DNA from: a phage
DNA length: 64,000 bases
Assembly (NCBI GenBank): GCA_018175075.1
Contig: GCA_018175075.1_4100.2
Reading direction: 5' to 3' (one strand)
Shown: piece after piece, positions 3,254-55,321 of the stretch
Numbering within the stretch: the first letter of the stretch is position 1
Layout: every line of letters begins with the position of its first letter
Program-made: the position numbers and the translations under genes
Notes under the pieces: model-generated
What the model was told of the DNA's origin: nothing
The model's database searches: none
Seen by the model: only the letters and a program-made list of their open reading frames with translations

Positions 3254-3565
3254 ATGTTATTAAATGATATACAATTCACATACAAATTTTTGTATATCCA
3301 ATACGCTACGGTTGATGCTGGAGAATATCTCTACGGTGAAATCTATCGTTCGGTATGGATAAAGTTTTTGGATGAATTACATGAATATTACCATGATTTG
3401 TGTATAGTTCGTGATAATAAAATATACAAATTCCGCGATATTGTTAGTCATAGCGGTAAGCTACGATTGGAATTAAGTACTGATAGTGATGTTGATTGGA
3501 TTGGTGTAAATTTACTGGAGTTGGAGAATGAAAAACAACTTAAAGGAAATACAAGTATTTTATAA
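3254..3565 (+). CDS. small paralog-family protein (member 4)
   Basis: IQFTYKFLY motif; RBS AAGAGG; ATG start. Confidence 0.55.
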   Translation: MLLNDIQFTYKFLYIQYATVDAGEYLYGEIYRSVWIKFLDELHEYYHDLCIVRDNKIYKFRDIVSHSGKLRLELSTDSDVDWIGVNLLELENEKQLKGNTSIL

Positions 3566-4718: not shown

Positions 4719-4992
4719 ATCGAATGAAGTACTTGTTGCTGAAACAATGAAGATGGTTTATGCCATAACAACTAGTAATGATTTGTCTTACCCAATTAAG
4801 TCCAAGTTGAGGGATATAACTCTTCAGGTTATACAGCAGTACTACAAATCTAAACACAAAAGTATTATTAATGTTTATCGTGACTATGAAAGGATTCGCA
4901 TTTTGTTCTGGAACAAGAATCGAGTTCGTTCGGAATGTGATATAGAAAACTTTAAATTTGAGAATCTTTATTGTTACAAAGCGGGACAATAG
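4708..4992 (+). CDS. hypothetical protein
   Basis: ORF; start set at ATG 4708 (track uses GTG 4690). Confidence 0.45.
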   Translation: MANKSNEVLVAETMKMVYAITTSNDLSYPIKSKLRDITLQVIQQYYKSKHKSIINVYRDYERIRILFWNKNRVRSECDIENFKFENLYCYKAGQ

Positions 4993-5010
4993 CTCAAGTA
5001 GTGATATAAT
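4983..5010 (+). promoter_or_regulatory. sigma70-like early promoter (GGGACA -16- TGaTATAAT)
   Basis: -35-like GGGACA at 4983-4988; extended -10 TGATATAAT at 5002-5010. Confidence 0.5.
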
Positions 5011-16240: not shown

Positions 16241-16984
16241 ATGAAACACTTCTTAGAAGTAACCGTACCTGATGATAAAGATTTATACATTGTAGGTGAT
16301 TTGCATGGTAATGGTAAACTATGGGATGCTACAGTGAAAGAATTTGGTATTACACACAATGATTATGTTTTCAGTGTAGGTGATATTATCGACCGTGGAG
16401 AACAAAATTCAAAGCTCCTTTTTGAATTTTTGTTCGGAGAAAATCGTTACATGATTGCGGGTAATCATGAGATGATGTGCGTTGATTCGGAAACACTTCG
16501 AGATTGGTATCATTGTTGGATAAGTAATGGTGGTGATAAATTCCTTGATGAAGTTGGAGGAACAGGCATTCAATTCTTTCGTCAGTACTTAAAGGATCTC
16601 CCTATGATTATCCAAATCAATCACCGAGGATTGAAGATTGGGTTAGTTCATGCTGGTGTTCCGTTGGAATATACAACATGGGAACGATTTGTTAATGGGA
16701 CAAAATCACTTAGTGCTGATATAATTGATAAGTGCTTGTGGGATAGAAAAACATTCGATTATTGTAGAACTAATAATACATATTATGCACCTAAGTTAGA
16801 TGGAGTGCATTGTGTCTTTAGTGGACATACAGCAGTTACAGATCCACTCATTTACGGTAATCGCATTTGGATTGATAGTCAGTTCTTGACGGGTGACTTA
16901 ACTCTCGCTACTCCACAAAGTGGTGGAATGAGATACTTACGTAAAGAAAAAGATGAGTACTCATTCAATCGTTTCAAAAGGTAA
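16241..16984 (+). CDS. Ser/Thr protein phosphatase (PPP family, lambda-PPase-like)
   Basis: GDLHGN, GDIIDRG and GNHE motifs; start at ATG 16241 after GGAG. Confidence 0.8.
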   Translation: MKHFLEVTVPDDKDLYIVGDLHGNGKLWDATVKEFGITHNDYVFSVGDIIDRGEQNSKLLFEFLFGENRYMIAGNHEMMCVDSETLRDWYHCWISNGGDKFLDEVGGTGIQFFRQYLKDLPMIIQINHRGLKIGLVHAGVPLEYTTWERFVNGTKSLSADIIDKCLWDRKTFDYCRTNNTYYAPKLDGVHCVFSGHTAVTDPLIYGNRIWIDSQFLTGDLTLATPQSGGMRYLRKEKDEYSFNRFKR

Positions 16985-17906: not shown

Positions 17907-19105
17907 TGGATTTTCCAGAGAAGTTATTTGTTGCACGTTCCTATGTAAACCACAACCAAGTTGATGGTTTTATTATCGATGCAACAAGATCACATACAAA
18001 AGCGTTTGAAACAAAGAAAGAGAGAGCAGAGTACTGGGCAAAGAAGAACAATCTTCCATCGTTATATATTGACAACGTTCCAACTACTGGATTTTGTGTA
18101 GTTGATAAATTAACAATTCATGCACGAGAAACATATTTCACAATCCGTCACCCAGAAGGATTTGAATTTATGATTAGTGCCAAAAACATGAATGATTTAA
18201 TTATCAATAACGATATAATCAAAGGTGTTTTTGTAGACCCAATGTTTTTCAACAATAACTTAGAATTAATTAATGGTAAAACAAAAACATTTGCTAAGTT
18301 AGTTGAAAAAGAAAATAAAAAAGAACAACAAAAAGAAACTGTAGCAGGTCTTAAAGTTGGTGATGGTTTCACGTATCTCAAAGAAGATTACTATTACTGC
18401 GGTAAAGTACATGCAATTTGTATAAAGAAAACTAAAGAATTTGCATACCCCGACAAAAGTTCTGTTTATCATTTACTTTTTAACAGTACTCGTGGAACTT
18501 ATGCATTGAATCAACGTTTGGATAATTACAATCTTGAACCTCGTGCACTCCTGAATAAGAAGACTACGGCAGATGAAGAAATTAAACTTGCTAATGAATT
18601 TTGGCAAAGCTATAGAACAAACAGACATAACCCATTAGGTGAATCTAATATTCCAGTACTGGTACACAATAAATCATTTAAAGCAAAAGACCTTAAAATT
18701 AAATACGAAGAAATAAATGTTGATGATCTTATGAATAATGGACGTTTCAACGAGAACGTACCATTTATGACTAAAGATAATGAACAAACATATCGCGTAT
18801 TTTTTGGTGTAAGTAATAATACAACGCGTAGTTATTATGGGCGTAGTGGAGATTATAATATCCATTATAATGATAAATTTGAACGCTTTAGTGCATATCC
18901 AGTTCAAATTGATGATAATGGGATTATGGTAATGGATGTTGATATTAATGAACACTCATCATTTAGTACATGGAATGGCTATCGTTCCCCATTCTTCCCA
19001 CCAAATGAACGCAAAACATCAAGCACTCGTTACTACCAAGACAAACCATGTCACGTCCAACTATCAATTAGTAATCCACTTTATATTGGAAAGTATTATC
19101 TATAA
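17903..19105 (+). CDS. hypothetical protein (400 aa)
   Basis: ORF immediately upstream of DNA ligase. Confidence 0.55.
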   Translation: MMDFPEKLFVARSYVNHNQVDGFIIDATRSHTKAFETKKERAEYWAKKNNLPSLYIDNVPTTGFCVVDKLTIHARETYFTIRHPEGFEFMISAKNMNDLIINNDIIKGVFVDPMFFNNNLELINGKTKTFAKLVEKENKKEQQKETVAGLKVGDGFTYLKEDYYYCGKVHAICIKKTKEFAYPDKSSVYHLLFNSTRGTYALNQRLDNYNLEPRALLNKKTTADEEIKLANEFWQSYRTNRHNPLGESNIPVLVHNKSFKAKDLKIKYEEINVDDLMNNGRFNENVPFMTKDNEQTYRVFFGVSNNTTRSYYGRSGDYNIHYNDKFERFSAYPVQIDDNGIMVMDVDINEHSSFSTWNGYRSPFFPPNERKTSSTRYYQDKPCHVQLSISNPLYIGKYYL

Positions 19106-19116
19106 AGGAATATACA

Positions 19117-20535
19117 ATGAGCATTTTAGCAATTCTTGAAAGCATTAAAAATACTAGCAGTACACTAGGCAAAAAAGCTATTCTTGAACAAAATAAAGAT
19201 AATGTAACTTTACAAAAAGTACTGAAATATACACTAGACCCTTCTATCGTTAGTGGCTATAAGAAGCTCCCTGCCGCTGATGACGTATATCAACATATGA
19301 CGTTAGATGAAGCAATTGATAAGCTAGAATGCATTTACAAGCGTGATGTGACAGGAAATGCGGGGCGTGATTTCATTGCTTCAGTACTGGGTTCAGTATC
19401 AGAAGATGATCAAGAAGTTCTCCGTAAAATGCTTACTAAAAACCTTGATTGTGGTATTCAAGAAAAGAACTGCAATGATGTATTTGGTAAAGGCTTTATT
19501 AAAGACGAACCATATATGCGTTGTTCTTTGATTGACAAAAAGACTGCAAAGAACATCAACTTCAAAGATTATGGTTACGCTATATCAGAAGTGAAAATGG
19601 ATGGTCAGTACTTGAACCACGTTGTCATTAATGGTTCATTAACTTCTACATCCCGTAATGGTAAACTATACGACTTCCTGGGTTGTCGTGATGGTGAGAT
19701 GGCAGGTCTTGCTCACATCATCCAAAGTAAAGATGAACGTTTTAGTAGTGGTGTAGTCTTTATGGGTGAAGGTGTAGTACTGGACAATGATGGAGAAACC
19801 ATTCTCCCACGCACTACTGGCAATGGTATAATTCAGAAAGCTGGAAAAGATAGTATCAGTCAGAATGAAGCAATGCGTACTGTATTTGTTCTATGGGATG
19901 TTGTTCCATATGATGCATTTTGTGAAGGTGTATGGGATGTAAAACGTAAAGAACGTCGCGAGATCTTAGTAGATGCAATTAACGAACTCAGTAGTGATTT
20001 TGTTCGTATGGTTGGATTCCGTAAAGTTCTAAACATCAAAGAAGCATTTGAGTACAATAGTGAACTAATGAGCGTAGGTGAAGAGGGTTCAGTACTGAAA
20101 TGTGAAGATGGTATCTGGAAATCTCACACTTCTCCTAAGCAATTGAAAATGAAACTCAAAATGCAACTGGACTTGCGTATTGTTGGTTTCAATGAAGGTG
20201 AAGGTAAGCGTAAAGGTAGCCTTGGTTCTTTACAACTGGAAAGTGCTTGTGGTACATTGAAAGTTAATGTAGGTACTGGAATTAAAGAGAAAGACGCAGA
20301 ATGGACGTTTAAAACCATTTGGGAAAGAATGCAAGAACTCATCGGTCAAGTAGTAACAGTAGAGTGCAATGATATTGTATTCGATAAGCGTACTGGTGAG
20401 CCATCACTGTTCTTACCAGTGTTTATTGAATTTAGATTTGACAAAAACACTTGTGATGATTATACTCGTATCTTAGAAATTCGTGAGAGTGCAGTTGAAG
20501 TGTTCTCAAACAGTATTATTGACGCATTAGGTTAA
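19117..20535 (+). CDS. ATP-dependent DNA ligase (T4 gp30-like)
   Basis: N-terminus resembles T4 DNA ligase (KQKQAILEKNKDN in T4 vs GKKAILEQNKDN here); KxDG-type motif EVKMDGQ; RBS AAGGA. Confidence 0.85.
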   Translation: MSILAILESIKNTSSTLGKKAILEQNKDNVTLQKVLKYTLDPSIVSGYKKLPAADDVYQHMTLDEAIDKLECIYKRDVTGNAGRDFIASVLGSVSEDDQEVLRKMLTKNLDCGIQEKNCNDVFGKGFIKDEPYMRCSLIDKKTAKNINFKDYGYAISEVKMDGQYLNHVVINGSLTSTSRNGKLYDFLGCRDGEMAGLAHIIQSKDERFSSGVVFMGEGVVLDNDGETILPRTTGNGIIQKAGKDSISQNEAMRTVFVLWDVVPYDAFCEGVWDVKRKERREILVDAINELSSDFVRMVGFRKVLNIKEAFEYNSELMSVGEEGSVLKCEDGIWKSHTSPKQLKMKLKMQLDLRIVGFNEGEGKRKGSLGSLQLESACGTLKVNVGTGIKEKDAEWTFKTIWERMQELIGQVVTVECNDIVFDKRTGEPSLFLPVFIEFRFDKNTCDDYTRILEIRESAVEVFSNSIIDALG

Positions 20536-20554
20536 CCATTTATTGGAGGTAATT

Positions 20555-21346
20555 ATGAAATTTGTTGTAACATCTGATGTACACGGTGGGACTGATTACC
20601 TCCATAGTGGTGATTACAGTGATACAGTACTGATTATTGCTGGGGACTTCGATGAAGTTAAACGCAGTCGTTACCGTACTGGTATCGAATCACTATGTAA
20701 GCAGTTTAAGAATGTAGTACTGGTTCCTGGCAATCATGAATATTATGGTTCCAATATCCACAAAACGCATAAAGTACTGTCCGATATACAAGATGAGATT
20801 CCAAATTTCATCTTTTTGCAAAACAAATTTGTATGGCTGGATGGAGTACTGCTTGTTGGTAGTACTCTGTGGACAGACTTCGATAAAGGTAATTCTTTGA
20901 CGAAGTTTGATGCTCGTCAGAAGATGAACGATTACAAACATATCCGTCATGGAACAACATCAGAGCCTTGGCGTAAGAAACTGACACCAGATGATACTGA
21001 GTTTATGCATCACAAAGATAAACAATTTATCAAAAATTCTATTGACACAGTTCGCTTTATGCATGATAATGATTTCAAGGTCATCGTGGTTACCCATCAC
21101 GCACCAAGTTATCAAAGTATTTCACCAAAATATAAAAATGATTCACTGAATGGTTGTTACTGTTCCGATATGGATCAGTACATTGAAGATTTGGGTGCTG
21201 ATGTTTGGATTCATGGTCATGTTCATAGTAGCTTTGACTACCACATTGGTAAGACACGTATCATTTGTAATCCACGAGGCTATGAATCATACAGTGGAGC
21301 TTGTGAGAATTTTGATTACAATCCTAAATTTGTATTTGAAATTTAA
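20555..21346 (+). CDS. calcineurin-like metallophosphoesterase
   Basis: SDVHGG, AGDFDE, GNHEYY, GHVH motifs; start at ATG 20555 after GGAGG. Confidence 0.75.
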   Translation: MKFVVTSDVHGGTDYLHSGDYSDTVLIIAGDFDEVKRSRYRTGIESLCKQFKNVVLVPGNHEYYGSNIHKTHKVLSDIQDEIPNFIFLQNKFVWLDGVLLVGSTLWTDFDKGNSLTKFDARQKMNDYKHIRHGTTSEPWRKKLTPDDTEFMHHKDKQFIKNSIDTVRFMHDNDFKVIVVTHHAPSYQSISPKYKNDSLNGCYCSDMDQYIEDLGADVWIHGHVHSSFDYHIGKTRIICNPRGYESYSGACENFDYNPKFVFEI

Positions 21347-21358
21347 TGAGAGGATATT

Positions 21359-21742
21359 GTGTCATTAATTTATTTTGAACTACCAGAATATACCAATTAT
21401 CCAAGCCGAGTTATTTGCTCAGTTTATAGTAATGCATATCATCACTTGTTAGTGAATAGTAATAAAGCTGTGCATTATTATCGAAATAAAGAACCACGTA
21501 CATTAAAGAATCGTTATGGTTTTGACCCAACTAACACTGAAGTTGAACTCTGTGATCTGTTTGGGGAAGTAATGGTGGTGTTGAAACGAGATATTCATCT
21601 TTTCCATACATACAAACTTAATCAGTACTTTATGGAAACACTGTCTATACGTTCCCATGCTCCGATGATTAAAGTTGATTTGAATTATGTTGATGATAAA
21701 TTGAAATATGATTTTATAAATTCACTTGTTTATTTGGAGTAA
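21359..21742 (+). CDS. hypothetical protein
   Basis: GTG start after GAGAGGA. Confidence 0.45.
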   Translation: MSLIYFELPEYTNYPSRVICSVYSNAYHHLLVNSNKAVHYYRNKEPRTLKNRYGFDPTNTEVELCDLFGEVMVVLKRDIHLFHTYKLNQYFMETLSIRSHAPMIKVDLNYVDDKLKYDFINSLVYLE

Positions 21743-21743
21743 T

Positions 21744-22148
21744 ATGAATATACGTTCAGTACGAATATTTTCATTTGTTGACATGAATGAAAAACACTCT
21801 TATGTGTTTGAAACTGTCAATAAGTTAAATCCTCATACGGCAAAAATGATTGAAACCATGAAGATCTTGAGTTTGCATATAGAAGTTTACTATCTTCATG
21901 ACGATTCTGTTTTTGTATATGATGATGGATGGTATGACGGTGTGTTTTATGATGACATTAGCACTACTGCTGATTACTACTTTCTAGTGAGTAATCCACT
22001 ATTCAGTACTAAAACTTTGTTTGACATTACCGATACAAGCGTGTATGATACAAGTCATGTTGAGTTACTTAAGTTTGATCCAGTATTATTCAACAAAGAG
22101 ACGGCGTATTGGATGACTGATTTCTTTTCAAATATTCCAGTAAAATAG
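21744..22148 (+). CDS. hypothetical protein
   Basis: ORF; start at ATG 21744 after GGAGT. Confidence 0.45.
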   Translation: MNIRSVRIFSFVDMNEKHSYVFETVNKLNPHTAKMIETMKILSLHIEVYYLHDDSVFVYDDGWYDGVFYDDISTTADYYFLVSNPLFSTKTLFDITDTSVYDTSHVELLKFDPVLFNKETAYWMTDFFSNIPVK

Positions 22149-22149
22149 T

Positions 22150-22178
22150 TTGGACATTTTAAATCTTAGTGATATAAT
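22150..22178 (+). promoter_or_regulatory. sigma70-like early promoter upstream of clpP
   Basis: -35-like TTGGAC/TGGACA at 22150-22156; extended -10 TGATATAAT at 22170-22178. Confidence 0.55.
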
Positions 22179-22212
22179 ACTCACAACAACGAAATAATAG
22201 AGGAAATTAATA

Positions 22213-22908
22213 ATGGTTGAACAATTCATGTTTGGTGGTTATGCTAATGGCGAAGTACGTAACATTTCTATTCCTTACGTAGTTGAGAAAGTTAATGGTT
22301 CAGAACGTACATATGATCTAGCATCTCGTATGATGCAAGACCGTATCATTTTCCTTGATACTGATTTCAATGATCAAATGGCACATATCATCAAACAACA
22401 ATTGGTATGGTTAGACTCACAAGGTGATTCCCCTATTACATTCTACATTAGTTCACCGGGTGGTTCAGTACACGCAGGTTTGGGTATTGCAGATGTTGCT
22501 AAGTCTTGTATTTCCCCAATTCGCACTGTAGTTATGGGTTATGCAGCATCAATGGGTTGCTATACACAATCTGTTATTGGGACTAAAGGTTTCCGTTTAG
22601 GTGGTAAACGCTCATACTTCATGTGTCACCAAGTAAGTTCTGGTACACAAGGTCTAATTACTGACCAGAAGATTTCACTTAAACATTCTGATGCCCTAAA
22701 CACTCTATTGACTAAAGAAATTGCAGAAGCAGTTGGTGTATCACACGAACAACTACTGAAAGATGCGGATCGTGACCTGTGGTTGAACGCTGAAGAAGCA
22801 CTCGAATACGGTGAACATGGTTTCATTGATGGTATCATCCTCGGACCACGCAACGAAGAAGGTAAGTATCTCGTCAAACGTCGCGGTGGCGTTGAAGAGT
22901 GGGTCTAA
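22213..22908 (+). CDS. clpP: ClpP-family serine protease
   Basis: ISSPGGSVHAG, catalytic GYAASMG and CHQ motifs; RBS GAGGAA. Confidence 0.75.
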   Translation: MVEQFMFGGYANGEVRNISIPYVVEKVNGSERTYDLASRMMQDRIIFLDTDFNDQMAHIIKQQLVWLDSQGDSPITFYISSPGGSVHAGLGIADVAKSCISPIRTVVMGYAASMGCYTQSVIGTKGFRLGGKRSYFMCHQVSSGTQGLITDQKISLKHSDALNTLLTKEIAEAVGVSHEQLLKDADRDLWLNAEEALEYGEHGFIDGIILGPRNEEGKYLVKRRGGVEEWV

Positions 22909-22920
22909 TTTGAATTTCAT

Positions 22921-22950
22921 TTGATGCCTCATTTGGGGCATCTTATTTCT
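22921..22950 (+). terminator. possible attenuator/terminator hairpin
   Basis: Hairpin GATGCC...GGCATC followed by interrupted T-run. Confidence 0.35.
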
Positions 22951-22959
22951 GGAGATTTT

Positions 22960-23250
22960 ATGAAAGTTCTTGTACGTAATAATACTGAAGTCAATGATGT
23001 GTTAGATGATTCAGAGTTTATTAATACCGCATTAGATCAGATTAGTGCAGTGGCTATTGAATTGAAAGGTGTTGACGAGGCAGAACGAGTACTCAATGGT
23101 TTTTCTATTGTTCTCGAATTAATGCAAGAAGTTCTTATTAAAAAGAACATTAATCCAATTAACGCAGTTCAACACGCAGAAGCTATGCGTCAAGAACATG
23201 GCACATTCTCAGATAAAAAATTCATCAGTACTGACGAGGGGAAAGAATAA
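22960..23250 (+). CDS. hypothetical protein
   Basis: ORF; start at ATG 22960 after GGAG. Confidence 0.45.
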   Translation: MKVLVRNNTEVNDVLDDSEFINTALDQISAVAIELKGVDEAERVLNGFSIVLELMQEVLIKKNINPINAVQHAEAMRQEHGTFSDKKFISTDEGKE

Positions 23251-23251
23251 T

Positions 23252-23698
23252 ATGTCTAATGCACAATACAAAGAAGGTTCTGCCGCGTTTAAAAACAAAG
23301 TAGTTTTTAACAATGAACAGCTAAAATCACAGCACCCATTATTCCGTCAAGGATATCGTGCTGCACAAGCTGAAGCTATGAAGAAAAATAACGTAACCTT
23401 CCCAACAACTCTGTATGATATTCCCAAACGTCCTTCAGTGTTTAAAGCAGAATGGACTGACATTATGGCAGCAACTAAACGTCCTCGTTTTGCTAAACTT
23501 CACACTGATGAAGGTCGCTGGATGTTGATGGGTATTATGAAAGCAGTTGAGAAACAGGCACATACTATTGTTCGTTACAAAGACGTTGTAGCTATGGTTG
23601 ATAAAGCATTTGATCTTATTCTCCAGTACGGTTATGATGAAGGTGTACTAACTGTTTCCGATTGTGAGCAGTACCAGTACACTCCATTCCAGAAATAA
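23252..23698 (+). CDS. hypothetical protein
   Basis: ORF; start at internal ATG 23252. Confidence 0.45.
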   Translation: MSNAQYKEGSAAFKNKVVFNNEQLKSQHPLFRQGYRAAQAEAMKKNNVTFPTTLYDIPKRPSVFKAEWTDIMAATKRPRFAKLHTDEGRWMLMGIMKAVEKQAHTIVRYKDVVAMVDKAFDLILQYGYDEGVLTVSDCEQYQYTPFQK

Positions 23699-23704
23699 TT
23701 ACTT

Positions 23705-23733
23705 AGGGAATCTTTCATGATTCCCATTTTATT
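23705..23733 (+). terminator. intrinsic terminator
   Basis: Hairpin GGGAATC...GATTCCC plus T-rich tail. Confidence 0.6.
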
Positions 23734-23811
23734 TGCTGCATATCAAAAATTATTGATCAAAAATTGATCCATACAAGGTAAATACCCAAGGTGTAATTGT
23801 TAATAGGGTAG

Positions 23812-24018
23812 GTGGATATGCAGCAATATAATTTAACTGAAGAACAAAGTGATATTTTTTATCATCATATGTTTTTAATTGATGAGTTTGCTTTGAAAAT
23901 TAATTCTGAAGCAATTGATATATTGAAGAAATGGTATTCATATTATAATAAAAACAAAAAGTGGTATTGGTTTAATAGAAATTTAAAGTCATTTTTTAAA
24001 AACAATAACACAAGTTGA
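23812..24018 (+). CDS. small hypothetical protein
   Basis: ORF. Confidence 0.4.
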   Translation: MDMQQYNLTEEQSDIFYHHMFLIDEFALKINSEAIDILKKWYSYYNKNKKWYWFNRNLKSFFKNNNTS

Positions 24019-24028
24019 TAGTGTAGAA

Positions 24029-24367
24029 ATGATACATAGTTCAATTGGATATAGTTATTTGACTAAACACAATAATACTATGATGTTATCCGGTTTTAAA
24101 GTTGAAAGAATTTCAAAGCTTACAGGTTTATCATTAAAAACAATTTTATATGATATAGAAAAGATTTGGAAAACTATAGAATTCATGCACAAAAATATGT
24201 CATTCATATATAGAAATTATGATATATTCACTGAGGTACGTCAATATCATAATAAACCTTATGTATTGAATGAAAAGTACTATAATCATATGGAAGTTTG
24301 TTCTAAACTCGTTGATGATTGGAATCTAGAGGGACATAATGAAATACACACACATAAGTATAGATGA
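24029..24367 (+). CDS. hypothetical protein
   Basis: ORF. Confidence 0.45.
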   Translation: MIHSSIGYSYLTKHNNTMMLSGFKVERISKLTGLSLKTILYDIEKIWKTIEFMHKNMSFIYRNYDIFTEVRQYHNKPYVLNEKYYNHMEVCSKLVDDWNLEGHNEIHTHKYR

Positions 24368-24863
24368 TACTAATATCTGGTTAGATAACATAATCAAGAC
24401 ATTAGAATTAATTAAACTTACATTACAAAAAACTACTGATATTGAAATTAATATTAAACAAGAAATATTAAACTATTATCATAGAAACAAATATAGCACG
24501 TTTATCTCTAAATTAATTTATGGATTATATGATATTGAAGATATTTGCATCGGTTACAGTACTGGTATTTGCTTCACTGTTAATGGTTTAAAAAATGATT
24601 TAAATTTCAGACTTTCCGATGAAGAGCAAGATTTTCGTAGATTTTGTGATAATATTATGGATACAGACAAAATTACATTTGTGATTGAATTAAATCAAAC
24701 ATGGTCTACATATGCAGATAAACCATTTGAAATTAATGAAACAGATGTGTTAAACTATATTCGAGTTATGAAAATTCATGATTTGTGTAAAAACGCATTG
24801 TTAAGTATTGGAGCTTATAATGAAACATACGACTTGGTTGAAGATAGCAGAAGTAGTTGCTGA
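24339..24863 (+). CDS. hypothetical protein
   Basis: ORF; 3' end overlaps cd start, boundary uncertain. Confidence 0.45.
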   Translation: MKYTHISIDDTNIWLDNIIKTLELIKLTLQKTTDIEINIKQEILNYYHRNKYSTFISKLIYGLYDIEDICIGYSTGICFTVNGLKNDLNFRLSDEEQDFRRFCDNIMDTDKITFVIELNQTWSTYADKPFEINETDVLNYIRVMKIHDLCKNALLSIGAYNETYDLVEDSRSSC

Positions 24864-25578: not shown

Positions 25579-25956
25579 TTAACCAGGGATGTTACAATAA
25601 TACAAATCCCAAGGGTGATATTTCATTTCTCCAGTACTCAATTTAATTTTATGAAACTGGAATGATTCGGCAAATGCACTATCATCAATCTTAATACAAA
25701 AAGTATTTTTTGCTAAAGTTGGTGCAATCTCTAGTGCAGTTTTAGATGCATCTAATCTGATTTTATCTTTATCAAAACTTGTTATAGTTACAAAACGATA
25801 AACATTAAAATCAGTGTCGATAAGATCGTAAACACAACTAGAACGTTGATTAAAGATGTTCAAGTTATATTTCAATTCACCGTTTATATTAGCGGCGGTT
25901 ACACAAAAGCCGCCGATATTGAATGGTAATTTACCTTGTGCTGCTATAGCTTTCAT
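25579..25956 (-). CDS. hypothetical protein (only substantial minus-strand gene in window)
   Basis: 125-aa ORF; minus-strand RBS AGAGGAAA upstream of ATG; convergent with plus-strand genes. Confidence 0.55.
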   Translation of the reverse strand: MKAIAAQGKLPFNIGGFCVTAANINGELKYNLNIFNQRSSCVYDLIDTDFNVYRFVTITSFDKDKIRLDASKTALEIAPTLAKNTFCIKIDDSAFAESFQFHKIKLSTGEMKYHPWDLYYCNIPG

Positions 25957-26265: not shown

Positions 26266-26874
26266 ATGAAAAGACTATGGCTTGAGGTAGTACAAGCAGT
26301 AATGCTTCTGATGTTGATAAATTTTCCAGCCAGTGCTGGTATTGAAAGTAAAAATGTGATAAAGTACAATCCTGAAACACGTAATGTATATTTCATCTCA
26401 GATATTACGGATGGGTCACTAAAGCGTATGATGGAGTTGTATGATAAAGAACACTATGATACCATTACCATCACATCGCCAGGTGGTGATTTTGATGCTG
26501 GGATTAAAATGGCAAACTTCGTTAGAGACAATGGTATAAATTTAATTGTTTCTAGGTATTGCAACTCAGCATGTACTGTGGTATTCTTCAGTGTAGCTTT
26601 TGAAAAGCGATACATGATAAATCGCTCAGTACTGGGTCTTCATAACATTTCGATTAAAAGTAATGTTACTGATGGTGATAATTCATTTGTGTCTGTAAGA
26701 CAGCTATCAACTTTTACCGAAGAAATGGCAACAAAGGTAGGTTTCCTTTTTTCACTATATGCAGCAAATGGAATCCCACCAGAAGTTCTATTTAGAGTTA
26801 GTCGTTCTCGTGGTGAAGATGTTGTAATATTAACAAAACCAGAACTGGTTTTTTACGGTTCAGTCAAACAATAA
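26266..26874 (+). CDS. secreted ClpP/S49-fold serine protease-like protein
   Basis: N-terminal signal peptide (hydrophobic core, AGI); ITSPGGDFDAG and NSAC motifs resembling the ClpP SPGG and Ser-site regions; a His is present. Confidence 0.5.
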   Translation: MKRLWLEVVQAVMLLMLINFPASAGIESKNVIKYNPETRNVYFISDITDGSLKRMMELYDKEHYDTITITSPGGDFDAGIKMANFVRDNGINLIVSRYCNSACTVVFFSVAFEKRYMINRSVLGLHNISIKSNVTDGDNSFVSVRQLSTFTEEMATKVGFLFSLYAANGIPPEVLFRVSRSRGEDVVILTKPELVFYGSVKQ

Positions 26875-26944: not shown

Positions 26945-27205
26945 ATGACAAACATCCAAAACTTGACATCTATTATTTTTTATGCTACTGTAGTAATGTA
27001 TGCTACAGTTATTTTTCTAACAGTTTTCATTTACAAAGATTATCGTAATGGCTTTATTGATCCAACTACAATGAAGTTCAATTCAAAATTCGAAGCAATA
27101 ATTTATTATGTACTATCAACTTCATACTTGGTGTGCCTAATGTTGTTAGGAGCACTAATTTATATCTTATACACAACATTATTTGCAATTGGAGCTATTT
27201 TATGA
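26945..27205 (+). CDS. small membrane protein
   Basis: Two hydrophobic segments. Confidence 0.45.
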   Translation: MTNIQNLTSIIFYATVVMYATVIFLTVFIYKDYRNGFIDPTTMKFNSKFEAIIYYVLSTSYLVCLMLLGALIYILYTTLFAIGAIL

Positions 27206-27795
27206 CCTGTATTATTGCACACACTGACGGAGTAAGTTCTTTTATTGCTGGGGATAAGTTAGGAAGCAATGGATTTACAAAAACTGTTCAAACTGAGCCA
27301 AAGGTATTCGAGAAAGAATTTATCAAGTTACATGATGATGGACTAACTAGAACTAAAGAAGTAATGGCATTGGGTTATACTACATCATTTCGTATGGGTC
27401 AGTTGTTAAATTATAACCTTAATTTACCTGAACAAGATGCTAGTCAAACATTTTCACAATATTTGGTTCTTAAAGTTATTCCAATCATTCGTCAAATGTT
27501 TAAAGAAGAATGGGGTGCACGAGATGCATCACAAGATGTAGGTGGTGGACAATTTATCATTCTCCACAATCATACAATCTATGAAGTTCAAGAAGACTTT
27601 TCAGTACTACAACCTAAAACAAGAATTACCGCAGTAGGTAGTGGGACATATCATGCAATTGCAGCAATGCAAGCATATATTGAAGTTGAGAACGAATCTA
27701 AAAAACCACTACACGAACGTATCAAATCAATTTTTAAAATTGTTAGTGATAATGTAACAAGCGTAAGCGAAGAGTTTGATGTTTTAAAATATTAA
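27202..27795 (+). CDS. HslV/proteasome-like Ntn-hydrolase peptidase
   Basis: Predicted N-terminus MTCIIAHTDG...IAGDK and AVGSGTYHAIAAMQAY, compared with E. coli HslV TTIVSV...IAGDGQ and IAIGSGGPYAQAAARA; Thr2 would be N-terminal after Met removal. Confidence 0.5.
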   Translation: MTCIIAHTDGVSSFIAGDKLGSNGFTKTVQTEPKVFEKEFIKLHDDGLTRTKEVMALGYTTSFRMGQLLNYNLNLPEQDASQTFSQYLVLKVIPIIRQMFKEEWGARDASQDVGGGQFIILHNHTIYEVQEDFSVLQPKTRITAVGSGTYHAIAAMQAYIEVENESKKPLHERIKSIFKIVSDNVTSVSEEFDVLKY

Positions 27796-27822: not shown

Positions 27823-28023
27823 ATGATGGCATACACAATTTATGAATGGGTTTTGAGTTTTTTTATAGTTTTTTCTATTGTTGTAATTTATAACAATGCT
27901 AAATGCTTATATAGAGACTTGAAATCCAATGGTTATCACAAAGATAATAATTTTATGTATGCCTATCATATTGGAATCATTCTGTTATTATCAATATATT
28001 TAATTGTTTTTTATAAGGATTGA
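27823..28023 (+). CDS. small membrane protein
   Basis: Hydrophobic ORF. Confidence 0.45.
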   Translation: MMAYTIYEWVLSFFIVFSIVVIYNNAKCLYRDLKSNGYHKDNNFMYAYHIGIILLLSIYLIVFYKD

Positions 28024-28025
28024 AT

Positions 28026-28778
28026 ATGATATCAGAAAAATTTATAAGCAATGAAGGTAAAAAGCGATTACTGATTATATCAGGTGCAGGACTTTCTGTT
28101 GAAAGTGGTATGGAACCTTTTCGATTTGATGATGGTTTGTGGGATACATTTAAAATTAATGATGTATGTAACATTGCTAGTTTAACTACGAAATATCACG
28201 TTGTTCATTCCTTCTATAATACATTACGTGTAAAATTGGGACAATGCGAACCCAATGCAATGCATTATTTTATAAAATCGTTAGAAGATCAATATGGTGA
28301 TTGCTTCCTTCATATGACTTCTAACATGGACGATCTTTATACTCGTATTGGTGGTCATGAGCTTAAACTTCATGGAAACTTGTGCGAAGTTATTGAAAAT
28401 TATAGTATCAATTCCGATGATTATAATGTTATTAACTGCGGATACGAACCATACATACCAAAACATGATGTTTTTGCTAAACCAAATGTAGTAATGATTG
28501 GAGAATATCATCGTTATGTTGATGGTATTCGCTTACCAATTTACGAAGAACGAAATAATGTGTTGAAATCTCTTAATGAAAATGATACAGTTATTGTAAT
28601 TGGTAGTAGCGATACAGTACTGGTATGGTCGAGATTAGCAGCAGCATTACCATGTTATAGTGTTAATGTTAACATTCGTAAAAATGATAATGATTTTTTG
28701 TTTAATGAAAAAGTTATCAAGCCAGCAACCAAAGCAATACCGCATCTAGAGACTATAATTAAGGAACGTATGAAATGA
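28026..28778 (+). CDS. Sir2-family (sirtuin-like) NAD-dependent protein
   Basis: GAGLSVESGMEPFR NAD-binding motif and LHGN catalytic His motif; start at ATG 28026. Confidence 0.65.
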   Translation: MISEKFISNEGKKRLLIISGAGLSVESGMEPFRFDDGLWDTFKINDVCNIASLTTKYHVVHSFYNTLRVKLGQCEPNAMHYFIKSLEDQYGDCFLHMTSNMDDLYTRIGGHELKLHGNLCEVIENYSINSDDYNVINCGYEPYIPKHDVFAKPNVVMIGEYHRYVDGIRLPIYEERNNVLKSLNENDTVIVIGSSDTVLVWSRLAAALPCYSVNVNIRKNDNDFLFNEKVIKPATKAIPHLETIIKERMK

Positions 28779-29326
28779 GTGTTAAAGAAGTTCCCTTTGG
28801 TGAATATGGCACACGTGCAAATTTTGTATTTTGTTATTTCTTTGCAAGAAAATGCAACCCTTACAAAAACTATGAGTTGAATGATATACCAGAAGTAAAT
28901 TTAGTATTACTGCAATTACGATGGGATGGTCTTCTTGGTGGATGTGGTGGAACCGTAGAAAGTACTGATATCTCACTAGAAGATGCGTTGCGTCGTGAAG
29001 TTCAAGAAGAAATGGATTACAATATTTTTGTTTCCCATCTTCGACCACTCAAAACTTTTGAAATTTACCCAGGTGCAAACAGTCACAGTTTTAGCTATGA
29101 AGTAACCTATGACGAGTTGAAACACATTAGAGATGGATACACTAATGCTAAACATGCAAGTGCAGAAGTTGCTGGTGTAAATTTATGTCATATTTCTCGT
29201 TATTCTAAGGGACAAAATCGAGAAGCGGGATATAATAATCTTATGACACAGAACTTCATCGGTACAGCAAAACAAGAATTGGAGTATCTGGTTCAAAAAG
29301 AAAACTTACTAATTAGTTATCTATAG
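28775..29326 (+). CDS. Nudix-like hydrolase
   Basis: GCGGTVE ... REVQEE matches a Nudix box with atypical spacing. Confidence 0.45.
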   Translation: MSVKEVPFGEYGTRANFVFCYFFARKCNPYKNYELNDIPEVNLVLLQLRWDGLLGGCGGTVESTDISLEDALRREVQEEMDYNIFVSHLRPLKTFEIYPGANSHSFSYEVTYDELKHIRDGYTNAKHASAEVAGVNLCHISRYSKGQNREAGYNNLMTQNFIGTAKQELEYLVQKENLLISYL

Positions 29327-29335
29327 GAGTTTAAC

Positions 29336-29656
29336 ATGTCTTACTCAATGTTTTTGGATGATATTCGTGATGCAAATCTATATTATCCAAACCAAGATAT
29401 GGTGGTATGTCGTGACTTTAAAAGTGCATGTGAATATGTTATTGAAAATGGAATTCCAGCATTTGTATCATTCGACCATGACTTGGGTGATGTGAGCGAA
29501 GACGAAAAGACTGGATATTCTTTTGCTAAGTTTCTTATTGATTATATGTTTGATAATAATATTAAAGAACCGTTTGAGTACTTTGTTCACAGTAGTAATC
29601 CTGTTGGTAAAATTAATATTGAAACATACTTAAACAATGGATTTAACTCATTATGA
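29336..29656 (+). CDS. hypothetical protein
   Basis: ORF; RBS GGAG. Confidence 0.5.
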   Translation: MSYSMFLDDIRDANLYYPNQDMVVCRDFKSACEYVIENGIPAFVSFDHDLGDVSEDEKTGYSFAKFLIDYMFDNNIKEPFEYFVHSSNPVGKINIETYLNNGFNSL

Positions 29657-30015: not shown

Positions 30016-31455
30016 ATGAAAAAATATACAATTGACACAAACGTACTACTATCTGACCCTAATGCATCTATTGCTTTTGATGGTGCTGCAATCATTCTAC
30101 CATTTACAGTACTGGAAGAATTGGATTCAATTAAGAGTCGTAATGTAGATGTTTCACGCGATGCTCGTGTTGCTATTCGTAACATTGAAGCAATTATTGC
30201 AGATGCATCACATGATGAGATTAGTAGTACTGGTGTTAATATTGCTGATGTTCATACCAATATGAATCCTGATAGCAAATTGTTTGTTATTACAAACGAA
30301 GAAGCTGAAGCACTAATTCGTACTAAAGGTTCAGAAGAGAAAGTTCAAACCCTTCTCAAAAGCACAGTACCTGATGATAAAATCATTCTGGTAGCTTTAG
30401 CAACAGAATCAGTACTGGTAACTCGTGATATCAACATGCGTATCAAAGCACTAAGTTATGGTGTCGAGGTACAAGATTATCGCCATGATATTGTTATTGG
30501 TGATAGTGATTTGATTCACATTGGTCAACACCATTTGGAAATCAATTTTTGGGAAGTATATAGCAACTTAACCAATACTAATATTCAATCCGAACAAGTT
30601 GGTCGTCGTTTGTATCATTACATTTCCAAAAGCTTGATTGAGCATTTGCTCCCACAAAATCTATGCATCGGGGATTATCTATATGATGATGCAGACGTAT
30701 TATTTGTGTACGAAGGTCAATCAGCAATTGAGGAAGATGATGGAACACTAACACCAGAAGATATTTTGGTATTCCAAGATATTGGACAATCAGTAGCTTT
30801 ACGTGCTAAAGTATGGGATATTAAAGCAAAGAATATCCAACAAGCACTCGCCATCAACAGTATTCTCGATCCTGATGTACATCTAACAGTACTGCTAGGT
30901 TCTGCTGGTACTGGTAAAACACTAATTACGATTGCGACTGCATTAGAATTAGTACTGGAAAAACGTAAATACGACCGAATCATCTTCTCTAAAACTCAAG
31001 ACTCACAGTTTGAAGATATTGGTTTCTTGCCAGGTTCAGAAGCAGAAAAAGTGATTCCATTCTGTGGAGCCGCAATTGACGCGTTAGAGTTTCTTCATAA
31101 AGATGATGCTAACCCTCAAGGTAGTATTGAAGAGATTATGAAACGTAATGTTATTCAATTTAAAGCACTAAACTTTGTACGTGGACGTTCATTCACCAAC
31201 ACTATTCTAGTAGTTGATGAATTCCAAAACATTACACCTGCACAAGCCAAAACAATCTTGACACGAGCAGGATTAAACTGTAAAGTAGTAATTATGGGTA
31301 ACTTGAGTCAGATTGACAGTAAGTTTATTAGTCCTGTTAACAGTGGTTTGACATATGTAACTGAGAAGTTTAAAGATTGGGCAGGTTGTCGTGTCATCGA
31401 ACTAGAAGGTGTTGTTCGTTCACCACTTGCAGAATTTGCTGAAGAAAATATGTAA
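30016..31455 (+). CDS. phoH: PIN-domain / PhoH-like ATPase
   Basis: N-terminal IDTNVLL (PIN-like); Walker A LLGSAGTGKT; Walker B-like ILVVDEFQN; RBS AAGGA. Confidence 0.8.
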   Translation: MKKYTIDTNVLLSDPNASIAFDGAAIILPFTVLEELDSIKSRNVDVSRDARVAIRNIEAIIADASHDEISSTGVNIADVHTNMNPDSKLFVITNEEAEALIRTKGSEEKVQTLLKSTVPDDKIILVALATESVLVTRDINMRIKALSYGVEVQDYRHDIVIGDSDLIHIGQHHLEINFWEVYSNLTNTNIQSEQVGRRLYHYISKSLIEHLLPQNLCIGDYLYDDADVLFVYEGQSAIEEDDGTLTPEDILVFQDIGQSVALRAKVWDIKAKNIQQALAINSILDPDVHLTVLLGSAGTGKTLITIATALELVLEKRKYDRIIFSKTQDSQFEDIGFLPGSEAEKVIPFCGAAIDALEFLHKDDANPQGSIEEIMKRNVIQFKALNFVRGRSFTNTILVVDEFQNITPAQAKTILTRAGLNCKVVIMGNLSQIDSKFISPVNSGLTYVTEKFKDWAGCRVIELEGVVRSPLAEFAEENM

Positions 31456-31459
31456 TATT

Positions 31460-31482
31460 GTATGGGACATTATGTCCCATAC
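31460..31482 (+). promoter_or_regulatory. perfect palindrome overlapping a promoter -35 (possible operator)
   Basis: GTATGGGACAT-TAT-GTCCCATAC inverted repeat with no T-run. Confidence 0.4.
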
Positions 31483-31493
31483 ATGATATAATG
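31464..31493 (+). promoter_or_regulatory. sigma70-like early promoter (GGGACA ... TGaTATAAT)
   Basis: GGGACA at 31464-31469; TGATATAAT at 31485-31493; shares the 12-mer ATGGGACATTAT with the promoter at 55294. Confidence 0.55.
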
Positions 31494-55293: not shown

Positions 55294-55321
55294 GGGACAT
55301 TATATGTTCCAATGATATAAT
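55294..55321 (+). promoter_or_regulatory. sigma70-like early promoter (GGGACA -16- TGaTATAAT)
   Basis: GGGACA at 55294-55299; TGATATAAT at 55313-55321; shares ATGGGACATTAT with the promoter at 31464. Confidence 0.55.

Follow-up and report, generated by a model that had tools for sequence, protein, structure and literature searches.

A ClpP-family peptidase gene of a Rak2-like jumbo coliphage, its probable phage-encoded ClpA and ClpS partners, and two conserved genes downstream of it

A phage gene for ClpP raises the questions of which unfoldase supplies the peptidase and whether the genes that follow it act in the same pathway. We addressed these questions at positions 22,150 to 23,733 of a 64,000-nucleotide (nt) stretch of phage DNA (contig GCA_018175075.1_4100.2 of assembly GCA_018175075.1; the whole stretch is hereafter the window), where clpP is followed by two open reading frames (ORFs), ORF2 and ORF3. 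The original prediction for this locus held that the phage ClpP presumably pairs with host unfoldases, as no ClpX or ClpA is encoded here, and that the downstream products could be adaptors or inhibitors that redirect proteolysis. Our analysis points elsewhere: most likely, the phage ClpP would work with a ClpA and a ClpS of the phage's own. The locus is laid out as follows.

22151-22178, plus strand: sigma-70-type promoter, with a -35 element TGGACA at 22151-22156, a 16-nt spacer, and an extended -10 element TGATATAAT at 22170-22178
22200-22203, plus strand: Shine-Dalgarno sequence GAGG of clpP, read from the sequence, 9 nt 5' of the ATG
22213-22908, plus strand: clpP, encoding a 231-residue ClpP-family serine peptidase with GYAASMG and CHQ present
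22923-22950, plus strand: T1, an internal terminator-like hairpin with a U-rich tail, between clpP and ORF2
22951-22954, plus strand: Shine-Dalgarno sequence GGAG of ORF2, read from the sequence
22960-23250, plus strand: ORF2, encoding a 96-residue helical protein, phrog_16159
23252-23698, plus strand: ORF3, encoding a 148-residue helical protein, phrog_16190, and starting 1 nt after the ORF2 stop
23706-23735, plus strand: T2, an intrinsic terminator, with a hairpin at 23706-23725 (7-bp stem, 6-nt loop) and a ATTTTATTT tail

Judged by its sequence, the gene at 22213-22908 encodes a canonical, catalytically intact ClpP. Its product matches the Pfam family PF00574 (CLP_protease; MEROPS S14) at 141.6 bits (E = 3.3e-41; cut-off, 20.2), and residues 20-209 align with approximately 100 solved bacterial, plastid, and mitochondrial ClpPs in the PDB (best E = 5e-36), in alignments that begin at the N-terminal axial-loop motif IPYVVE...GER.YD. 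Ser113 (GYAASMG), His139 (MCHQ), and Asp188 (DRDLW) align with S97, H122, and D171 of E. coli ClpP, for which our reference sequence was identical to PDB 3mt6, and the triad is invariant in 10 aligned family members (E. coli, Klebsiella, Pectobacterium, Yersinia, Vibrio, and metagenomic phages). The original prediction had recognized a ClpP homolog with an intact Ser and His, and the complete triad together with the Pfam match upholds that assignment. The window's protein is also 99.6% identical to proteins that are already annotated as ClpP, and the ratio of nonsynonymous to synonymous substitution rates (dN/dS) of the gene against its orthologue in phage G17 is 0.012.

The protein is a divergent ClpP and not an orthologue of the bacterial housekeeping enzyme. 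It shares 36% identity with E. coli ClpP, and the canonical ClpP models are its best matches in NCBIfam at 152 to 155 bits, with TIGR00493 reached at 152 and its cut-off of 308.6 missed. The first ~18 residues are variable and propeptide-like, and the C terminus carries an extension of ~22 residues (G.RNE.G.Y.VKRRGG..EWV) that is conserved in the clade and absent from bacterial ClpP.

Relatives of the locus were found by two DNA-level searches. Region 22100-23800 gave megablast matches to 44 phage records, all of them jumbo phages of 310 to 386 kilobases (kb) that infect E. coli, Salmonella, Erwinia, or Serratia; the closest is Escherichia phage Turkey3 (95%), and the PBECO4/121Q/G17/phAPEC6 group (genus Asteriusvirus) stands at ~87%. 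A more sensitive search with clpP returned 71 records of Rak2-like phages, adding phages of Klebsiella, Cronobacter, Pectobacterium, Yersinia, Xanthomonas, and Vibrio. By these matches, the window is part of a Rak2-like (Asteriusvirus) jumbo coliphage genome. Nearly all of its simple ORF calls (109 of 111) lie on the plus strand, and clpP sits between ligase and metallophosphoesterase genes on one side and a dCMP deaminase gene on the other.

To what, then, does this peptidase couple? A tblastn search of the window with a phage ClpA-like query returned no Clp ATPase (the window was not searched for ClpX), and a search with E. coli ClpS as the query found nothing there either; we therefore rejected the idea that ClpA or ClpS is encoded in the window itself. 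Among phage records, tblastn with E. coli ClpX showed that PA5oct-like phages, Atu_ph07, phage G, and Lak phages encode a genuine ClpX; it detected none in Asteriusvirus records and otherwise gave only a weak AAA+ match, in Klebsiella phage K64-1. This protein, gp078, is a two-ring Clp/Hsp100 ATPase with the Pfam domains AAA, AAA_lid_9, AAA_2, and ClpB_D2-small. Homologues that are 64 to 78% identical to it occur in 33 Escherichia jumbo-phage records and in Rak2-like phages of Klebsiella, Salmonella, Yersinia, Pectobacterium, Erwinia, and Serratia; all of the Rak2-like genera checked have one, and several already carry a clpA annotation. In relatives for which both positions are listed, clpA and clpP lie ~83 to 89 kb apart (156.8 and 239.7 kb in slurp01; 300.2 and 213.0 kb in WPEC3), a distance that would place clpA outside the window.

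We tested the domains and loops of this unfoldase on two relatives of the window's phage, WPEC3 and K64-1. The WPEC3 protein has 762 residues and comprises D1, AAA_lid_9, D2, and ClpB_D2-small, preceded by an N terminus in which a Clp_N repeat seems visible by eye. Among the NCBIfam models, ClpA fits it best, with an end-to-end match at 751 bits (cut-off, 993), against 637 for ClpB. In the D2 ring, the loop TKRSIGMSGSD aligns with ERKSIGLIHQD of E. coli ClpA, which holds the IGL ClpP-docking loop; K64-1 has IGV at this position. The WPEC3 clpA gene also has TTGACA-N16-TGATATAAT ~35 nt before its ribosome-binding site (locus L009, approximately 3414-3442), a promoter of the same type as that of clpP.

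A ClpS-domain protein accompanies the unfoldase. It has 177 residues in phage GAP32, matches the NCBIfam ClpS models at 1e-10, and occurs in 72 records whose host spectrum is essentially that of clpP, including 34 Escherichia phages with Turkey3 among them. The E. coli ClpS query misses the Asteriusvirus proteins, which were recovered with the GAP32 homologue; ClpS has been noted for phage CBB (PMC7824862). Since ClpA-like and ClpS-domain proteins run through the lineage, a phage-autonomous Clp protease is the most economical reading when set against dependence on host unfoldases, although we infer the pairing of ClpP with ClpA and ClpS from co-occurrence and sequence features.

Compared with E. 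coli ClpAPS (ClpP, the ClpA unfoldase, and the N-degron adaptor ClpS), the phage set shares the ClpP fold with its Ser-His-Asp triad and axial loop, a ClpA with an N-domain-like region, D1, D2, and IG[hydrophobic] at the IGL position, and a ClpS-domain protein. It differs in the low identity of its ClpP, in ClpP and ClpA scores that fall below the NCBIfam equivalog cut-offs, in the C-terminal extension and altered docking pocket of ClpP, in a ClpS with an N-terminal extension of ~60 residues, and in genes that are spread over ~170 kb instead of forming a clpS-clpA operon. Atu_ph07, PA5oct, phage G, and the Lak phages likewise encode ClpP with Clp ATPases and ClpS, as noted previously (PMC6102473, PMC7824862), but they also carry the ClpX that was not detected in Asteriusvirus records. 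The tblastn matches to these distant ClpPs stop at approximately residue 200 to 216 of the query, short of the C-terminal extension of the Rak2 type. A search for ORF3 gave no match in these groups, and ORF2 was not searched for there.

The alternative that the phage ClpP docks on host ClpX and/or ClpA, with ORF2 and ORF3 as adaptors or inhibitors that redirect host-driven proteolysis, has to be weighed against these results. The failure of the ClpA-like query to find a Clp ATPase in the window and of the ClpX query to find a homologue in Asteriusvirus records fits this alternative, as do the retained axial loop, from which the alignments start at IPYVVE, and the conservation, common orientation, and close linkage of ORF2 and ORF3. 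The docking pocket gives a mixed answer. Of the E. coli ClpP positions that we take, from the ClpP/ADEP literature, to form it (Y60, Y62, F82, I90, M92, F112, L114, and L189), about five of eight stay hydrophobic in the phage protein (Y62, I90, M92, F112, and L189 become Y, V, M, L, and I), whereas T, S, and G stand in place of Y60, F82, and L114. Against host docking stand these replacements, the conserved 22-residue extension that bacterial ClpP lacks, and the lineage's own unfoldase with its IG(M/V) loop and ClpS-domain adaptor, both of which co-occur with this ClpP clade-wide. Also against this alternative, ORF2 derives from an NTP-pyrophosphatase fold that is not that of any known adaptor, and searches revealed no resemblance of ORF3 to known adaptors such as ClpS, SspB, and RssB. 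We consider this alternative unlikely. The absence of ClpA noted in the original prediction thus holds for the 64-kb window but not for the lineage, and the proposal of host unfoldases is weakened by the presence of ClpA-like and ClpS-domain proteins in every relative checked. Its suggestion that the downstream products are adaptors or inhibitors met with neither support nor refutation.

A different role altogether is implied by several automated annotations, in which ClpP would be a morphogenetic protease, acting in head maturation or associated with the virion. The best PHROG match of the protein is phrog_94, "head maturation protease" (E = 3.9e-44), and several GenBank records use this name; mass spectrometry of CBB virions yielded one ClpP peptide (4.5% coverage; PMC5259590), and genes for virion proteins lie 1 to 3 kb away (24339-24863, phrog_19307; 25579-25956, the counterpart of phAPEC6 gp347). 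However, relatives have a separate T4 gp21-like prohead protease, which has been detected in virions and whose gene adjoins those for capsid, scaffold, and portal; it has been described beside the capsid gene in Sharanji (PMC11895373) and CBB (PMC5259590), and clpP lies outside this portal-protease-scaffold-capsid module. None of ClpP, ORF2, and ORF3 (gp353c, gp352c, and gp351c in phAPEC6) is among the 62 proteins of the phAPEC6 virion proteome. ClpP has retained the axial loop at its N terminus that is used for ATPase coupling, its gene stands among genes of DNA and nucleotide metabolism behind a sigma-70-type and not a T4-late-type promoter, and the NCBIfam model for ClpP-related head-maturation proteases, NF045542, reaches 51.2 bits against a cut-off of 120, compared with ~152 bits for canonical ClpP.

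We conclude that ClpP is not the capsid-maturation protease, and a morphogenetic role of any kind is highly improbable. Identity with the prohead protease, which the original prediction had named beforehand as an outcome that would refute it, was not borne out, in view of the proteome and of the gp21-like protease in relatives. The "head maturation protease" labels stem from PHROG 94 and are most likely misannotations, which arise because ClpP, the phrog_94 and NF045542 head-maturation proteases, and T4 gp21 distantly share a ClpP-like fold.

Metabolic genes in the clpP region are intermixed with genes for virion-associated proteins. The gene at 25579-25956, the only one of this block on the minus strand, is the orthologue of the gene for phAPEC6 gp347, a 14-kDa virion protein with 75% mass-spectrometry coverage. 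On the plus strand, 30016-31455 encodes a PIN-PhoH fusion protein whose phAPEC6 counterpart, gp341c, is in the virion list.

How is the peptidase gene expressed, and are the two genes behind it part of the same unit? The near-consensus promoter with an extended -10 that had been predicted before clpP is present, scoring 11 of 12 with the TG extension in a promoter scan, and it is more than a chance match, as it belongs to a recurrent class. The pattern GGACA-N13-15-TGNTATAAT occurs at five sites in the window, all on the plus strand, against 0.01 expected by chance, and there are 12 copies of the extended -10 TGATATAAT, where 3.1 would be expected. The sites of the class, (G/T)GGACA-N13-15-TGATATAAT, are these:

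4984-5010, plus strand: promoter-class site
16698-16725, plus strand: promoter-class site
22152-22178, plus strand: promoter-class site of clpP
31465-31492, plus strand: promoter-class site
55295-55321, plus strand: promoter-class site

Three of the five, that of clpP included, stand ~30 to 35 nt 5' of a start codon; those beginning at 4984 and 16698 do not. The clpP promoter is identical in sequence among G17, Sharanji, and phAPEC6, and in Turkey3, which has a different upstream gene, the extended -10 alone is retained. A T4-late-type promoter for clpP was considered and rejected, as its motif was not seen and the -10 region reads TGATATAATAC. The "early" timing given to the unit in the original prediction is suggested by the sigma-70-like character of the promoter. 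Our literature search found no transcriptomes for the Rak2-like/Asteriusvirus group, and the only relative with RNA sequencing is PA5oct, in which DNA-metabolism genes are mostly middle or late. Since no terminator stands before the clpP promoter, transcripts of upstream genes are also likely to read through into clpP; little or no space separates clpP from its upstream gene in CBB, Yen9-04, loci L010 and L014, XaC1, and the Vibrio phage.

Downstream, the picture is of a unit with an internal interruption. The three genes are on the same strand and separated by gaps of 51 nt (clpP-ORF2) and 1 nt (ORF2-ORF3), and no promoter-like site scoring at least 9 of 12 was found on the plus strand in 22200-22960. 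In the first of these gaps lies T1, whose stem-loop at 22923-22942 (GATGCCTC-ATTT-GGGGCATC; 8-bp stem, 4-nt loop, free-energy change [dG] -13.0) is followed by the tail TTATTTCT, reaching 22950; from there it is ~9 nt, including the GGAG, to the start of ORF2. Because T1 precedes ORF2 and no promoter-like site stands upstream of it, ORF2 and ORF3 would be expressed only via read-through, and the three genes do not form a simple uninterrupted operon. The operon that had been predicted is therefore supported by the common strand, the short gaps, and the lack of an internal promoter but is qualified by the hairpin within it.

The T1 stem is kept in all of the aligned Asteriusvirus relatives. Klebsiella phage Muenster and the metagenomic locus L012 have hairpins of other sequence at the same position, and that of Muenster was annotated as a terminator by its authors; a T1-like hairpin is absent in lineages where clpP and ORF2 abut or overlap. 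We regard T1 as probably an attenuator or a 3' stabilizer.

The terminator that had been predicted to close the three genes is T2 (dG -11.6), which a terminator scan recovered and which has an ARNOLD annotation in G17. In all 10 of the lineages compared, ORF3 is followed by a GC-rich hairpin and a T-tract (Asteriusvirus, Alcyoneusvirus, Mimasvirus, Eneladusvirus, three metagenomic lineages, Xanthomonas phage XaC1, and a Vibrio phage among them), with differing sequences and weakly in Muenster only. This constancy makes ORF3 the conserved last gene of a unit with clpP and ORF2. The 113-nt spacer after T2 is conserved in Asteriusvirus relatives and contains repeated TTGATC(A/C) motifs with GATC (23742-23775, plus strand), which may be a regulatory or promoter element for the next gene. 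That gene, phrog_11171, encodes 182 residues and is intact in G17; a frameshift near 24015-24030 splits the window's copy into two halves (23812-24018 and 24029-24367, plus strand), through either pseudogene formation or a sequencing error.

The two downstream ORFs had been described as unknown; they are real genes at 22960-23250 and 23252-23698, but ORF2 is not wholly without relatives. Word-based and profile searches gathered 50 ORF2 homologues, all of ~95 residues and all from Rak2-like phage contigs. Searches of Pfam, NCBIfam, and the PDB with the single sequence and with profiles of 8 and 50 sequences returned noise alone, including no match of the window's protein to PF01503 or PF03819, and 1 of the 50 family members matches PRA-PH, at E = 0.094. 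The AlphaFold2 (AF2) model is of low confidence (predicted local distance difference test [pLDDT] score, 59), and Foldseek against the PDB gave no match better than E = 1; HisE (1yxb), at E = 2, came fourth.

The link to a known family was obtained solely by synteny, through the positional orthologue in Vibrio phage 2.275.O. The gene directly after clpP in this phage encodes a 107-residue protein that matches Pfam PRA-PH (PF01503) at 24.7 bits against a threshold of 21.3, and the ORF2 family profile aligns with it over 76 columns (hhalign probability, 91.5%; E = 8.8e-7). The two share K-x-L-[VI]-R near the N terminus, a D-I-L-E-[LV] helix, and G-x-F near the C terminus. Muenster's annotators likewise reported an HHpred match of 92% between their ORF2 counterpart and the HisE structure 1YVW. 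ORF2 is best described as degenerate and only remotely related to other proteins of its superfamily, the MazG/PRA-PH all-alpha NTP pyrophosphohydrolases. Set beside the MazG/HisE proteins (PRA-PH, COG4997), it has these motifs in common with the Vibrio PRA-PH protein but lies under all Pfam, NCBIfam, and PDB thresholds, and the acidic clusters of the Vibrio protein, QEESIEL and EEMADILE, with their EExxE and EExxD motifs, read SAVAIEL and NGFSIVLE in the window, where 1 to 2 acidic residues are left. Having lost most of its metal-binding acidic residues, ORF2 is probably not an active pyrophosphatase and probably non-catalytic.

ORF3 is a clade-specific helical protein with no catalytic signature. 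It is restricted to Rak2-like phages, where it occurs in 72 records with the host-genus spectrum of clpP (71 records) and of the ClpS-like protein; PA5oct-like phages, Lak phages, and phage G, the groups with distant ClpPs, were not among its matches.

Both downstream genes are conserved, the opposite of which would have counted against the original prediction, in sequence (dN/dS against G17 of 0.10 for ORF2 and 0.07 for ORF3, so that all three genes are under purifying selection) and in arrangement, with the clpP-ORF2-ORF3 order and the 3' terminator present across the 10 lineages. We asked whether this arrangement reflects a shared function or a shared neighborhood. Under the latter explanation, ORF2 and ORF3 would be unrelated to ClpP and would belong to a block of nucleotide and DNA metabolism genes that shares a transcript end with clpP, where ORF2 would bind nucleotides or do house cleaning in the manner of MazG and ORF3 would be some small factor of unrelated function. 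This explanation accommodates several facts: all lineages keep the order ligase ... clpP-ORF2-ORF3 ... dCMP deaminase collinear, the protein that corresponds to ORF2 in the Vibrio phage is of genuine PRA-PH/MazG type, internal hairpins partly uncouple clpP from ORF2/ORF3 in three lineages, and another gene separates ORF2 from ORF3 in the Vibrio phage.

Yet the neighborhood is less constant than the trio. The gene 5' of clpP may be a hypothetical gene, a metallophosphoesterase gene, or the ligase gene directly, and one to four genes stand between ORF3 and the dCMP deaminase gene, depending on the lineage; clpP and ORF2, by contrast, are adjacent in each of the 10 lineages, whose hosts range from E. 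coli to Xanthomonas and Vibrio (the ClpP of XaC1 is 45% identical), and ORF2 and ORF3 are parted in the Vibrio phage alone. Stop and start codons within the unit overlap in L010, L014, and XaC1, suggesting translational coupling, and the ORF2 of enterobacterial and Xanthomonas phages has lost most of its catalytic acidic residues and is still under purifying selection. In addition, a mosaic patch of 1.1 kb (~22650-23750) takes in the 3' third of clpP, T1, ORF2, ORF3, and T2 and is 99 to 100% identical to Turkey3 and ~80% identical to G17, while its flanks (19000-22600 and 24250-24750) are 93 to 100% G17-like. The patch resembles a recombination cassette with clpP and the terminator as its limits, the 3' part of clpP exchanged together with both downstream genes. 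Synteny, codon overlap, and the shared patch favor a functional link of ORF2 and ORF3 with clpP, but the explanation by unrelated neighbors remains a serious one, which we would put a little short of an even chance.

Taken together, we propose that ClpP is the peptidase chamber of a phage-encoded Clp machine, with the ClpA-like unfoldase and the ClpS-domain adaptor as its partners, and that this machine would degrade selected cytoplasmic proteins during infection. Transcription would start at the host-type extended -10 promoter (22151-22178), probably with a contribution from upstream read-through; T1 would stop or stabilize most transcripts after clpP, and the remainder would run through ORF2 and ORF3 to T2. 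Being reached by read-through of T1 only, ORF2 and ORF3 would yield less product than clpP. On account of their fixed position behind clpP, they may act in the ClpP pathway as regulators, substrate selectors, or assembly factors, a possibility that we rate below even; otherwise, they are mere neighbors in a conserved nucleotide-metabolism block. The model as a whole, with the phage-run Clp machine, the T1/T2 unit, and ORF2 and ORF3 as described, seems to us somewhat probable.

In a bolder version, the phage ClpS-ClpA-ClpP machine would be self-contained, with ORF2 and ORF3 as accessory subunits dedicated to it. The two might control access to ClpP with its C-terminal extension, redirect it to other targets, or prevent it from mixing with host ClpP, ClpX, and ClpA, and the conserved T1 hairpin would set their sub-stoichiometric expression. 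We find this version rather doubtful; if true, it would define a new class of ClpP regulators made from a repurposed pyrophosphatase fold.

Several observations weigh against the proposed Clp machine and the place of ORF2 and ORF3 in it. ClpA and ClpS lie outside the window, and we infer their presence in this genome from relatives, where clpP, clpA, and clpS are dispersed (~85 and 170 kb apart) and not clustered. The N-terminal loop of ClpP and part of its docking pocket are conserved and would be compatible with host ClpX or ClpA, and there is the ClpP peptide from CBB virions. With respect to ORF2 and ORF3, the whole block from ligase to dCMP deaminase is collinear, and their adjacency to clpP may accordingly mean little; the Vibrio phage has a 244-residue gene between the two; and MazG ancestry suits ORF2 to its nucleotide-metabolism neighbors as well as to a Clp role.

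Parts of this picture were already known, in that ClpP, ClpA, and ClpS of Rak2-like jumbo phages are annotated in GenBank. According to one report, the phage ClpP is a peptidase that is probably turned against the host; ClpS and ClpA/ClpX chaperones are mentioned there too (PMC7824862), and our literature search found no experimental work on the phage ClpP. What is added here is the exclusion of a capsid role via published proteomes, the evidence that the partners are phage encoded, the attenuator-like internal hairpin, the promoter class that recurs in the window, the descent of ORF2 from MazG-type proteins and its degeneration, and the invariant clpP-ORF2-ORF3-terminator arrangement. Two misreadings are thereby corrected, the "head maturation protease" label and the assumed need for host unfoldases. 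If the phage does run its own N-degron-type protease, identification of its substrates (host defense or takeover targets, or phage scaffold debris) becomes tractable, and one would look first to ORF2 and ORF3 as possible specificity factors.

Two further protease-like genes lie nearby. The gene at 26266-26874 (plus strand) encodes a 202-residue protein with an N-terminal signal peptide and a ClpP/crotonase-like fold (phrog_26024, "protease"; Pfam CLP_protease at E = 0.0074 only), in which the Ser of CNSAC and the His of GLHN appear to match the nucleophile and the base of ClpP in position. The gene is conserved in Muenster, whose annotators reported an HHpred match of 98% to ClpP, and in the Vibrio phage, and its product is possibly a periplasmic ClpP-fold protease. 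At 27199-27795 (plus strand), ~4 kb from clpP, a 198-residue HslV-family Ntn peptidase that starts with MT (phrog_1040, E = 2.7e-24; NCBIfam HslV, 4e-4) represents a second self-compartmentalizing protease subunit; no HslU-like partner turned up in Asteriusvirus records in the tblastn searches made for ClpX.

Downstream of these protease genes is a run of genes of NAD- and nucleotide-signaling type (28020-29656, plus strand), made up as follows.

28020-28778, plus strand: Sir2-family gene
28775-29326, plus strand: Nudt16-like NUDIX gene
29336-29656, plus strand: gene with a cREC_REC "cyclic-phosphate processing receiver" domain

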